Below, one piece after another: positions 1,567-42,258 of a stretch of DNA of 64,000 nt. The position numbers were made by a program, and so were the translations under genes. The stretch comes from Escherichia phage vB_EcoM_HZ_ZJUN4. Each line of letters opens with the position of its first letter. Within the stretch, counting starts at the first letter, position 1. Under the pieces are notes generated by a model. The model made no database searches, was not told the origin of the DNA, and worked only from the letters and a program-made list of their open reading frames with translations. The DNA lies in the sequence record PP216085; one strand, written 5' to 3'.

Positions 1567-2402
1567 ATTACGATAGATTTTATCCCTGTGATTTTGTGAA
1601 TGATAAATTATCTTTAATATTTGAAGAAAATAATGATTTACTATTGTCATATGTTGATTTGATAACAAAAAATTATAATAATCCTAAAATAAAAGGAAAA
1701 ACGGAAGCACATCACGTGCTTCCCAAATCTATATTTCCCGAATATAAAACAGATAAATGGAATATTGTTAATTTGTCATATTATGACCACGCGTTAGCTC
1801 ATTACTATTTAGCTAAAACAAGTAATAGTAAAATGTGTTATGCCTTTCATAGAATGATAAACTCGAATACCGATAGATTTAATACAGATGAATTGGATGA
1901 AATTCTTAAATTGTATTCCAGTGAAAAGGAATTATTTCACCGCTCTATGTCAAAATTATCGAAAAATATATGGAAGGATGACGATTTTAGAAAAAGACAT
2001 AGAGAACTAACTAAGTTAGCAATGCAAAAACCTGAAGTTAGAAATAAAACTTTATTAAATTTGTCAAATGCAATGAAAACTGACGAAGTTAGAAATAAAA
2101 TTTCCAGGCTAACTAAGTTAGCAATGCAAAAACCTGAAGTAAAAGAAAAACATAGAAATTCATTGAGGTTGGCGTATGCAAATCCTGAGGTTATGAAAAG
2201 AAAACATCAACGTCTTCGAGAAAAATATACTCTTAATTTATTTGGCGCATATAAAGATGGTGTTCTTTTAAAAACATTTAATTATATACCAGACGCAGCA
2301 AAATATTTTAATATTTCTAGCAAAGGAAATATTTTAAAATGTTTAAATGGCGAACGTAAAAGTGTTGAAGGCTATAATTGGAAATATATAAATGAATTAT
2401 GA
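1563..2402 (+). CDS. HNH-family homing endonuclease-like protein (Mob-like)
   Basis: 279-aa ORF with HH..N..H core (EAHHVLPKS...NLSYYDHALAHYYL) resembling T4 Mob HNH proteins; ATGA overlap with nrdD stop; first 13 codons near-identical to nrdG start; internal repeated DNA-binding-like motifs. Confidence 0.65.
   Translation: MNYDRFYPCDFVNDKLSLIFEENNDLLLSYVDLITKNYNNPKIKGKTEAHHVLPKSIFPEYKTDKWNIVNLSYYDHALAHYYLAKTSNSKMCYAFHRMINSNTDRFNTDELDEILKLYSSEKELFHRSMSKLSKNIWKDDDFRKRHRELTKLAMQKPEVRNKTLLNLSNAMKTDEVRNKISRLTKLAMQKPEVKEKHRNSLRLAYANPEVMKRKHQRLREKYTLNLFGAYKDGVLLKTFNYIPDAAKYFNISSKGNILKCLNGERKSVEGYNWKYINEL
2007..2143 (+). repeat. direct repeat of ~34 bp (ctaactaagttagcaatgcaaaaacctgaagt) about 100 bp apart inside the HNH gene
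   Basis: Two near-identical copies starting at 2007 and 2109 encoding LTKLAMQKPEV; gaagttagaaataaa also recurs. Confidence 0.8.
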
Positions 2403-2862
2403 CAGAATATACCCGTGCTGCTTTGTGAATGGCCCTGGATGCAGGACCGTTCTTTTCGTTACAGGTTGTTTGCATAAATGTGAAGGGTGTTATAATAAAT
2501 CAACATGGAATGCTAGAAATGGCGTTCCATTCACTGGTGAAACACTGGAACAATTAATTAAATGTTTGAATAATGATTATATAGAAGGATTAACTATAAC
2601 TGGAGGAGACCCTCTTTATCCTGATAACCGAGATGTTGTTCATTGCATTGTTCAAACAGTAAAAAATCTTTATCCAAATAAAAGCATTTGGTTGTGGACA
2701 GGATATAAGTTTGAAGATATTAAACAACTAGAAATGCTTAAATATGTTGATGTTATTATTGATGGGAAGTATGAGAAAAATCTTCCGACCAAAAAGCTGT
2801 GGCGAGGTTCAGATAATCAGCGACTTTGGTCAAATACCGATGGGGTGTGGAAACATGATTAA
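2392..2862 (+). CDS. nrdG: anaerobic ribonucleotide reductase activating protein (radical SAM)
   Basis: 156 aa; radical-SAM cysteine motif CLHKCEGC; position after nrdD. Confidence 0.9.
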   Translation: MNYDRIYPCCFVNGPGCRTVLFVTGCLHKCEGCYNKSTWNARNGVPFTGETLEQLIKCLNNDYIEGLTITGGDPLYPDNRDVVHCIVQTVKNLYPNKSIWLWTGYKFEDIKQLEMLKYVDVIIDGKYEKNLPTKKLWRGSDNQRLWSNTDGVWKHD

Positions 2863-2952: not shown

Positions 2953-3192
2953 TTGGTTAATCAATTAAGGGTAAATATGTATAAATTTCGTAAAGGTTTA
3001 GCTGATTTTCTTACAACTGTAACGTTCTTTTTGTTTATGGCAGTTGGTGCTATTTTTCTTATTCCTTTTATTGCTATATTTTTCGTGATTAGTTTGATTT
3101 CTCCAGAAAAAGGACTGTCTTCTAGCGAGTTCAATGAACGCCTGGATAAAATTACTAATAAGCTGAATGCTGTTCTTGATAAAAAGGATTAA
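2953..3192 (+). CDS. hypothetical small membrane protein
   Basis: 79-aa ORF with long hydrophobic segment. Confidence 0.5.
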   Translation: MVNQLRVNMYKFRKGLADFLTTVTFFLFMAVGAIFLIPFIAIFFVISLISPEKGLSSSEFNERLDKITNKLNAVLDKKD

Positions 3193-3194
3193 TT

Positions 3195-3506
3195 ATGATT
3201 AGTTTTGAGCGGTATGTGGTAGAGAGTTGGAAAGGTTTTGATATGTTCGGTAATGACTATTATTTTTACGAATGTAATCTAAATCCTAGTTTTTGGGCTG
3301 GACGTGAACGAGATCTCGAAGAAATTAATGCTCGTGCCGAATTGTTAGGTGAACTACCTACGGTTTATTTTACCTTTGATGCATCTGGATTTGTTATCCA
3401 GGTTTATTTTCCTGAAGAAAACTCTGGTGAGGATTCTGTTAACCCGCCATACTGGGCTTATCAAGGAATTATTTCTCGTGGAACAAAACTCGAACTTAAA
3501 GAATAA
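3195..3506 (+). CDS. hypothetical protein
   Basis: 103-aa ORF, protein-like composition, tightly packed with neighbours. Confidence 0.5.
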   Translation: MISFERYVVESWKGFDMFGNDYYFYECNLNPSFWAGRERDLEEINARAELLGELPTVYFTFDASGFVIQVYFPEENSGEDSVNPPYWAYQGIISRGTKLELKE

Positions 3507-3801
3507 GATTGAAGTCTATGGAATTCCAGATGAAGTAGGTCGTTGTCCTGGATGTCAATCAGTTACAAAACTTCTAAAGGAGCTCAATGCTCCTTTTACT
3601 TTCTATAAAGTTCTTACAAATAATGGTAAGATCGAGTATGATCGTCCATTGATTGTATCTCTTGCTAAACGCGCTGGATTCACATCTCTTAACATTCGTT
3701 ATCCAGTCATTTTCATCAATGATTCTAGACAAAAGAACATTAAACACTTCAAAGAAACTCTCATTTCACTTGGATATGATAGAGATATCATAGAAGACTA
3801 A
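3478..3801 (+). CDS. nrdH: glutaredoxin-like protein (NrdH-like); start codon uncertain (GTG 3478 proposed, ATT 3508 possible)
   Basis: IEVYGIPDEVGRCPGCQS thioredoxin-fold CxxC motif; no in-frame ATG upstream of the motif outside the overlapping upstream ORF; AAGGAA 9 nt before GTG 3478. Confidence 0.5.
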   Translation: MEQNSNLKNKIEVYGIPDEVGRCPGCQSVTKLLKELNAPFTFYKVLTNNGKIEYDRPLIVSLAKRAGFTSLNIRYPVIFINDSRQKNIKHFKETLISLGYDRDIIED

Positions 3802-3804
3802 GAC

Positions 3805-3825
3805 GGGCCCTCTGGGCCTTTCTTT
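3805..3825 (+). terminator. putative hairpin terminator (ggccc tct gggcc + U-rich)
   Basis: Short GC stem followed by tttctttc. Confidence 0.35.
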
Positions 3826-3892
3826 CTCGCATTCTGTATATTACCATTCTAAGCTATCGTTCCCTTCTTATCATTCCCTAAAATAATTTCAC

Positions 3893-3930
3893 AAAGTTGT
3901 TTACAAGAAGTTCAAACTGTGGTATTATTA
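3893..3930 (+). promoter_or_regulatory. T4-type early promoter (GTTTAC -35 at 3899-3904, TATTAT -10 at 3923-3928, A-rich upstream)
   Basis: Match to T4 early promoter pattern GTTTAC-N18-TGGTATAAT. Confidence 0.55.
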
Positions 3931-41715: not shown

Positions 41716-41833
41716 TTCTTCTAGCGTTGATATGAAAAAATATAAATTGCAGAACAATGTTCGTCGTTCTATTAAATCCTCTTCAATGAACTATGCGAAT
41801 GTCGCTATTATGACAGACGCAGATCACGATGGA
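41696..41833 (+). CDS. 60: topoisomerase II subunit gp60, codons 1-46 (pre-bypass)
   Basis: MKFVKIDSSSVDMKKYKLQNNVRRSIKSSSMNYANVAIMTDADHDG ends at take-off GGA followed by TAG. Confidence 0.9.
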
Positions 41834-41883
41834 TAGCCTTCGGGCTATCTATAGAAATACCTCATAATTAAGAGATTATTGGA
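41834..41883 (+). promoter_or_regulatory. 60: gene 60 translational bypass coding gap (50 nt): UAG stop plus take-off stem-loop tagccttcgggctatct, ending at landing GGA 41881-41883
   Basis: Sequence GAT GGA TAG CCTTCGGGCTATCTATAGAAATACCTCATAATTAAGAGATTATT GGA TTA GGT matches the T4 gene 60 hop element as I recall it. Confidence 0.9.
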
Positions 41884-42228
41884 TTAGGTTCTATTTATCC
41901 TTCTCTGCTCGGATTTTTTAGTAATTGGCCAGAATTGTTTGAACAAGGAAGAATTCGCTTTGTCAAAACTCCTGTAATCATCGCTCAGGTCGGTAAAAAA
42001 CAAGAATGGTTTTATACAGTCGCTGAATATGAGAGTGCCAAAGATGCTCTACCTAAACATAGCATCCGTTATATTAAAGGACTTGGCTCTTTGGAAAAAT
42101 CTGAATATCGTGAGATGATTCAAAACCCAGTATATGATGTTGTTAAACTTCCTGAGAACTGGAAAGAGCTTTTTGAAATGCTCATGGGAGATAATGCTGA
42201 CCTTCGTAAAGAATGGATGAGCCAGTAG
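41884..42228 (+). CDS. 60: gp60 post-bypass segment (LGSIYPSLLGFFSNW...)
   Basis: In-frame continuation after landing codon; track lists only 41935-42228 from an internal Met. Confidence 0.88.
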   Translation, partial: LGSIYPSLLGFFSNWPELFEQGRIRFVKTPVIIAQVGKKQEWFYTVAEYESAKDALPKHSIRYIKGLGSLEKSEYREMIQNPVYDVVKLPENWKELFEMLMGDNADLRKEWMSQ

Positions 42229-42258
42229 TTTACTTTACCACAAGGACGTGGTATAATT
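42225..42258 (+). promoter_or_regulatory. T4-type early promoter (GTTTAC 42228-42233, TGGTATAAT -10 42252-42257)
   Basis: Near-consensus. Confidence 0.6.

Follow-up and report, generated by a model that had tools for sequence, protein, structure and literature searches.

The locus raises the question of where translation of nrdH begins. The gene occupies 3478-3801 of the window, which is the whole 64,000-nucleotide stretch of DNA that was analysed and comes from a Tequatrovirus (T4-like phage) genome. The start of its thioredoxin-fold motif carries no ATG, and several other codons compete for the role of initiation codon. The comparison of these candidates with one another and with related phages indicated that nrdH is very probably an intact gene under selection, with its translation start at GUG 3478 behind the sequence AAGGAA at 3463-3468.

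Locus and Gene Order

The 636 bases around the nrdH start had matches in 634 phage genomes, nearly all of them Tequatrovirus (T4-like coliphages), and the top match was ECO07P2 with 99.2% identity. The gene order known for the T4 NrdH orthologue, nrdG, 55.8, an optional ORF, nrdH, a terminator and 55.6, was also found in the window. The features of the region were as follows.

2392..2862, plus strand: nrdG, anaerobic ribonucleotide reductase activase (Fer4_12, E 3e-48; Radical_SAM; comparison with T4)
2977..3192, plus strand: homologue of T4 gene 55.8, predicted membrane protein (phrog_1930), which lies directly 5' of nrdH in T4
3195..3506, plus strand: upstream ORF of 103 codons, PHROG 2749 (phrog_2749, E 4e-49), with its final 29 nt shared with nrdH
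3463..3468, plus strand: Shine-Dalgarno sequence AAGGAA, inside the upstream ORF, with a 9-nt spacer to the GTG
3478..3801, plus strand: nrdH coding sequence, 107 codons plus TAA (3799-3801), glutaredoxin fold (T4 NrdH match; Pfam Glutaredoxin)
3478..3480, plus strand: probable GTG initiation codon of nrdH, invariant in 19 aligned sequences and the annotated start in the T4 RefSeq record
3478..3506, plus strand: 29-nt overlap of the upstream ORF and nrdH, a putative site of translational coupling
3544..3555, plus strand: CPGC redox motif (TGT CCT GGA TGT), Cys23 and Cys26 of the 107-aa protein, read from the sequence
3805..3829, plus strand: intrinsic-terminator-like hairpin (3805-3819) with a T-rich tail, immediately 3' of the nrdH stop
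3900-3928: promoter-like site

The site equivalent to 3805..3829 is labelled 'terminator' in phage e11/2. Inside the nrdH coding sequence (3576-3596), the terminator scan also flagged an 8-bp hairpin, AAAGGAGCTCAATGCTCCTTT, with T-rich sequence after it. It may be a chance match, because the same bases encode KELNAPF.

Start Codons in the nrdH Frame

Codon-by-codon reading of the nrdH frame placed the last in-frame stop before the gene at TAG 3346, and the next start-type codon was GTG 3349. The sole in-frame ATG upstream of the motif was found at 3379, and none occurred from 3382 to the thioredoxin-fold motif. The motif itself, IEVYGIPDEVGRCPGCQ, is opened by ATT 3508, which is one base past the stop of the upstream ORF (TAA 3504-3506), and the same frame closes at TAA 3799-3801. 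This reading bore out the initial annotation in that no ATG lies near the motif, that GTG 3478-3480 is preceded by AAGGAA 9 nt upstream, and that the stop of the upstream gene falls directly at the motif start. The codon at 3349, taken there for the only in-frame ATG, is a GTG, and the extension counted from it as 55 residues is in fact 53 codons long to ATT 3508 and 43 to GTG 3478.

GUG is a standard start codon of bacteria and phages, so the statement that nrdH lacks a canonical ATG start was overstated in so far as it makes GTG non-canonical. About 14% of E. coli genes start with GUG (bioRxiv 10.1101/063800), and a GTG start is therefore unremarkable in itself. What goes beyond chance, as judged from the alignments below, is the cross-genus conservation of the GTG and the Shine-Dalgarno core, not the use of GTG.

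The annotated start in T4, suggested earlier as a check, agreed with the GTG. In the T4 RefSeq sequence NC_000866.4, nrdH (T4p072, NP_049686.1, complement 41805..42113) is annotated with GTG as its first codon. The start context in T4 is ...AGTAAGGAATAGTTGTGAAACAAAATAAGATTGAAGTC, read as VKQNKIEVYG, and the GTG is preceded by TAAGGA. TAG TAA stops stand four and five codons before this GTG in the T4 nrdH frame, which makes the GTG the only canonical start available there. Among the 14 neighbouring T4 genes used for the start-codon comparison, one was annotated with GTG, namely nrdH. The last 97 residues of the window NrdH were 100% identical to T4 NrdH; the two proteins were 98% identical in alignment, and the only other difference was a 5-codon N-terminal indel. 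The GTG start of nrdH is already known from the T4 reference annotation and is ordinary.

Strength of the Candidate Start Sites

The duplex of GTG 3478 with the 3' end of the 16S rRNA (SD-antiSD) had an energy of -5.4 kcal/mol, which places it among the top 7% of positions in the window. The values for ATG 3379, GTG 3349 and ATT 3508 were -2.4, +0.1 and -0.9 kcal/mol, respectively. Four neighbouring starts were also checked; three gave -5.0 to -6.0 kcal/mol, and nrdG gave -3.3 kcal/mol. The spacing of 9-10 nt between the Shine-Dalgarno sequence and the GTG was at the long end of the usual range. No structure beyond chance was found around the start (3430-3540, MFE -19.8 kcal/mol, z = 0.2 versus shuffled sequences), and no sequestration of the Shine-Dalgarno sequence or the GTG was evident. 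Of the starts that had been proposed as plausible, GTG 3478 was well supported, but ATT 3508 was not, given its duplex energy and the lack of conservation of the ATT. Literature searches for the T4 NrdH N-terminus, a toeprint, T4 ribosome profiling or a statement on T4 start-codon usage returned nothing relevant.

Selection on Both Sides of the GTG

Initiation at ATG 3379 (or GTG 3349) would give a protein of 140-150 residues whose N-terminal extension is hydrophobic. In the window, the frame can be read from 3349 without a stop, and a few GenBank records (KK4, fPS-65 and G3F10) annotate a 140-aa form. However, the Shine-Dalgarno pairing was weak for the ATG and absent for the GTG. Furthermore, in-frame stops were found 3-17 codons before the GTG start in T4, VR26, L035, L036 and L061, so that the long ORF whose translation from 3349 had been considered is blocked in these relatives. 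Compared with Mosigvirus, the 129 nt before 3478 carried 9 substitutions, which changed 8 of 43 residues in the nrdH frame and 1 of 43 in the frame of the upstream ORF. Since the substitutions were mostly silent in the latter frame, the DNA 5' of 3478 has been selected as the upstream ORF and not as an extension of nrdH. In addition, 9 of the 33 residues of the extension were different between the annotated 140-aa forms and the window, as against about 1 of 107 in the mature part. Translation of the long form was judged extremely improbable.

Downstream of the GTG, the codon differences from Mosigvirus were 34 synonymous and 13 non-synonymous, which indicates that nrdH is a selected gene and not a pseudogene. 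The gene might otherwise be thought to be decaying after the loss of an ATG start, as no ATG is nearby, relatives starting with ATG exist, and the copy in phage PhiZZ6 has lost its first active-site cysteine through a 24-nt deletion. Yet the frame in the window is intact, with the CxxC and the conserved proline present, 371 phage records contain the protein at 99% identity or higher, and the GTG and its Shine-Dalgarno sequence are conserved. There is hardly any probability left for decay; the frameshifted pseudogene raised in the initial annotation does not agree with an intact frame that is under purifying selection. In the overlap, 1 substitution in 30 nt was counted against Mosigvirus versus 59 in 291 nt for the rest of nrdH, and this low level would be consistent with constraint from two reading frames.

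Conservation of the GTG and the Shine-Dalgarno Core

The nrdH loci of 14 annotated genomes from different genera and 56 IMG/VR loci were compared, and every possible start was listed from the preceding in-frame stop to the I-E-[IV]-Y-G strand. In the alignment of 19 distinct sequences from about seven genera, the GTG and the AAGG core were invariant and most neighbouring columns were variable. The GTG stood 10, 7 or 5 codons before the strand in Tequatrovirus, Mosigvirus, Gaprivervirus, Dhakavirus and Kanagawavirus, and was out of frame in Mosugukvirus PM2. In these six genera, AAGGAA, AAGGAG or GAAGGTGG was present 6-10 nt before the GTG. The coding sequences of ECO07P2 and e11/2 are annotated from the exact equivalent of 3478. 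In VR26-type genomes, an in-frame stop lies 3 codons ahead of the GTG, and the GTG is the only canonical start possible. Moreover, T4-type genomes have kept the GTG and the AAGG core though the overlapping upstream ORF is absent from them.

The GTG straddles codons 95-96 of the upstream ORF. Codon 95 was CGT, TGT or AGT (Arg, Cys or Ser), and its 'GT' was always kept. Because the residue is free and the second and third bases are fixed, the conserved 'GT' points to selection for the nrdH start rather than for the upstream protein. The conserved Gly91 and Gly96 of the upstream protein could be a partial cause of the conservation of the GTG and the Shine-Dalgarno sequence, but T4-type genomes keep both without the ORF.

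In Jiaodavirus, Krischvirus, Slopekvirus, Karamvirus, Gelderlandvirus, Roskildevirus, Lazarusvirus and Aeh1, an ATG was found 1-7 codons before the strand, often in an ATGA stop/start overlap. The corresponding first strand of T4 NrdC (1AAZ/1ABA) begins at residue 3. A short N-terminus is the norm of the family, because the distant relatives start 1-7 codons before the strand, as in NrdC. In three IMG/VR loci (L030, L031 and L073, shortly before position 601), only TTG was available as the nrdH start, 2 or 5 codons before the strand and behind GGTGA or GAGGTGA; non-ATG initiation of nrdH has therefore arisen more than once. As far as the compared loci indicate, the position and the codon of the nrdH start turn over a good deal across the family.

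Possible Reinitiation at ATT 3508

Ribosomes ending at TAA 3504-3506 might reinitiate one base on, at AUU 3508, and make a 97-residue protein, alone or beside the GUG product. Several observations agree with this. The stop one base before the ATT in the window has a similar counterpart in VR26- and JS10-type genomes, the public record LC348379 annotates an ATT start on identical DNA, and the ATG-starting relatives begin 1-2 codons before the position of the ATT with an ATGA stop/start overlap. However, ATT 3508 showed no Shine-Dalgarno pairing. AUU initiates at 1-2% of the level of AUG, and the confirmed AUU starts of E. coli are only those of infC and pcnB (bioRxiv 10.1101/063800).

The comparison of genomes also spoke against the AUU. 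The ATT is changed to ATC in two Dhakavirus genomes (L033 and L061) that retain the GTG, and the position is ATA, ATC or GTN in the ATG-starting relatives. The Mosigvirus upstream ORF stops instead at a TGA within ATTGAA. Reinitiation at the ATT, as put forward in the initial annotation, also fails to fit T4-type genomes, because their upstream stop adjoins the GTG (2 nt before it) and is 20 nt from the ATT. The distance from the GTG to the ATT was 30, 21 or 15 nt depending on the lineage, always a multiple of three, so that the codons between them hold the frame through three indel lengths. A gene that truly begins at AUU would have no other start to use and would keep the AUU in its relatives, neither of which applies to ATT 3508. 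A start at AUU 3508 was thus considered very unlikely, and GUG 3478 remains the preferred start.

Possible Frameshifting in the Overlap

A programmed +1 frameshift in the 29-nt overlap would join the upstream ORF and nrdH into a fusion protein. In favour of it, Pectobacterium phage PM2 has both as one 199-codon ORF annotated as nrdH. However, one A added to the A7 run of PM2 restores a GTG at -7 codons, with AAGGAA 9 nt upstream and a stop one base before the ATT. Furthermore, the window contains no A-run or recognisable shift-prone site within 3478-3506, and the local RNA fold was no better than that of shuffled sequences. Programmed frameshifting was accordingly given a negligible chance, and two separate genes with initiation of nrdH at GUG 3478 is the layout preferred here.

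In PM2 itself (NC_028940; L038 307-906 = L074), the 199-codon ORF is called 'glutaredoxin nrdH', the GTG is out of frame, and the A7 run lies at about position 42,240. The simplest reading of the fusion is a homopolymer length error or a private mutation, because one extra A restores the standard two-gene layout. It is probably a homopolymer sequencing error, and in this single genome it may alternatively be a real fusion or involve slippage on the A-run.

The Upstream ORF and Probable Translational Coupling

According to the proposed mechanism, initiation would take place at GUG 3478, directed by AAGGAA 3463-3468 from within the 3'-terminal part of the upstream ORF, and the product would be a 107-residue glutaredoxin-fold protein, MEQNSNLKNK-IEVYG...CPGC.... 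nrdH lies on the same strand as nrdG, with the terminator directly after it, and the two genes would presumably be carried on one transcript. The nrdH start and its Shine-Dalgarno sequence are inside the end of the upstream ORF, which is the structure of coupled overlapping cistrons. The upstream stop comes 27 nt after the nrdH start, and for this reason translation of nrdH is probably coupled to that of the upstream ORF. Initiation at the GUG would presumably be lower than an AUG would give. T4 has this arrangement minus the upstream ORF.

The upstream ORF (3195-3506) is absent from T4 and present in ECO07P2 and e11/2. It was found in about two thirds of the matching Tequatrovirus records, 419 of 634 having a match over 80% or more of the query, and five other genera also carry it. 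The indel of this 103-codon ORF (window 3186-3510 versus T4, L001 3590-3640) is flanked by two similar ribosome-binding-site/start regions, AAGGATTAATTATGA at 3186 and AAGGAATTATTTCTCGTGGA at 3463, and the T4 junction can be aligned to either of them. Because the ORF is widespread elsewhere and the T4 junction fits either flanking region, the T4 form looks like a derived deletion by which nrdH became the immediate neighbour of gene 55.8, and T4 would also have lost a further 15 nt in frame after the GTG.

The upstream ORF, where present, always directly precedes the redox protein NrdH. Its Cys27 (window 3273-3275) is a lone invariant cysteine in a C-x-[LI]-N-P-x-F motif across six genera. The weak GUG within the PHROG 2749 ORF may serve as a conserved device for linking NrdH synthesis to the protein of this ORF and for holding it below the level of that protein, the two working together. 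For example, the upstream Cys27 might be a redox partner of the CPGC pair of NrdH, beside the anaerobic ribonucleotide reductase genes. The overlap kept in at least six genera, the single ORF in PM2 and the conserved Cys-x-[LI]-N-P motif would agree with such a device, but T4 keeps nrdH without the upstream ORF, and one extra A undoes the PM2 fusion. We regard the device as unlikely.

The NrdH Protein and Its Family

The gene is, on sequence grounds, the T4 nrdH orthologue of the Straboviridae group, with a predicted glutaredoxin/thioredoxin fold. The match to Pfam PF00462 Glutaredoxin scored 23.8 bits, barely over the gathering cut-off of 22.9, and the match to PHROG 22 'thioredoxin domain' had an E value of 5e-16. 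The closest solved structure in a PDB profile search was T4 glutaredoxin NrdC (1AAZ/1ABA, E 3e-10). C23, C26 and P76 were invariant in an alignment of 15 genomes, with the CxxC after the first strand and the proline before strand 3; P76 is assumed from the fold to be the cis-proline. The GenBank note in the T4 record states that NrdH 'has glutaredoxin activity'.

Bacterial NrdH-redoxin is the electron donor of class Ib NrdEF and has the active site C-[VM]-Q-C. The active site of the window NrdH is CPGC, which departs from this pattern. Moreover, the NCBIfam scan at E <= 0.1 found no NrdH model and only a sub-threshold match to the YruB family (16.1 bits versus a cut-off of 88.55). Membership of the bacterial NrdH-redoxins was rejected on these two results, and the name 'NrdH' in phages is a matter of nomenclature, not of membership of the NrdH-redoxin family.

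Citrobacter phage PhiZZ6 (MT176424, L017 around 686-760), also a Tequatrovirus, has a 24-nt in-frame deletion in nrdH. IPDEVGRCP is gone, the sequence reads IEVYGCGCQ, the first active-site cysteine is missing, and the gene is unannotated there. The deletion suggests that nrdH is dispensable in at least one lineage.

Public Annotation of the nrdH Start

Near-identical phages carry three annotated nrdH starts: the GTG, which gives 107 or 102 aa and is used in the large majority of records; the ATG farther upstream, which gives 140 aa; and the ATT, which gives 97 aa. The 107-aa GTG product identical to that of the window was called on 496 public contigs, and the 102-aa GTG product of T4 on 948 contigs. 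The 140-aa form, from the equivalent of ATG 3379, was limited to the few records named above (proteins P0009 and P0011 are among the discordant entries), and the 97-aa ATT form to the one record LC348379 (L075 401). The 97-aa 'MEVYG' protein was tried as a natural ATT-to-ATG variant and rejected, since its DNA does not differ from the window and the ATT was simply the choice of the annotator. The JS10 annotation (L006 731) starts at an ATG inside the gene, immediately ahead of the CxxC, and would delete the first strand. The discordant starts in JS10, LC348379, KK4, fPS-65 and G3F10 look like artefacts of annotation tools, not biology.

The value of the result is limited to consistency of annotation; by the comparative evidence, the GTG form is the right one for expression constructs, proteomics databases and re-annotation. 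The understanding of translation initiation and of phage nucleotide metabolism is unchanged by the GTG start of nrdH.

Comparison with Known Systems

The nearest known system is T4 nrdH. As in the window, its GTG stands behind (T)AAGGA and the gene is followed by the terminator and by gene 55.6, and the window nrdH has the GTG and AAGGA-type Shine-Dalgarno sequence of this reference. The two differ in the number of codons from the GTG to the I-E-V-Y-G strand, which is 5 in T4 (VKQNK) and 10 in the window (VEQNSNLKNK). Furthermore, T4 is without the 103-codon upstream ORF; there, 2 nt separate the stop of gene 55.8 from the GTG, whereas the GTG of the window is 27 nt inside another gene.

T4 NrdC (1AAZ, 1ABA, 1DE1/1DE2) can be aligned with NrdH across the entire fold, its CxxC falls at the corresponding position, and its first strand begins right at the N-terminus. 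It is a distant paralogue, with the active site CVYC (CGPC in the 1ABA sequence) compared with CPGC in the window NrdH, and its gene is located elsewhere in the T4 genome.

In ATGA-type coupled operon pairs of phages and bacteria, the downstream start and Shine-Dalgarno sequence are within the end of the upstream gene, as in the window. The ATG-starting relatives JD18, Cronus and MIZ6 have this classic ATGA overlap at the nrdH junction. However, the ATGA-type overlap is 4 nt long, and that of the window is 29 nt with a GTG.

A start at ATT 3508 would have its only precedent in the AUU starts of E. coli infC and pcnB, AUU being a weak start that is selected against during initiation. In infC and pcnB the AUU is the sole start and is experimentally confirmed, whereas nrdH has an in-frame GTG with a good Shine-Dalgarno sequence 10 codons upstream.
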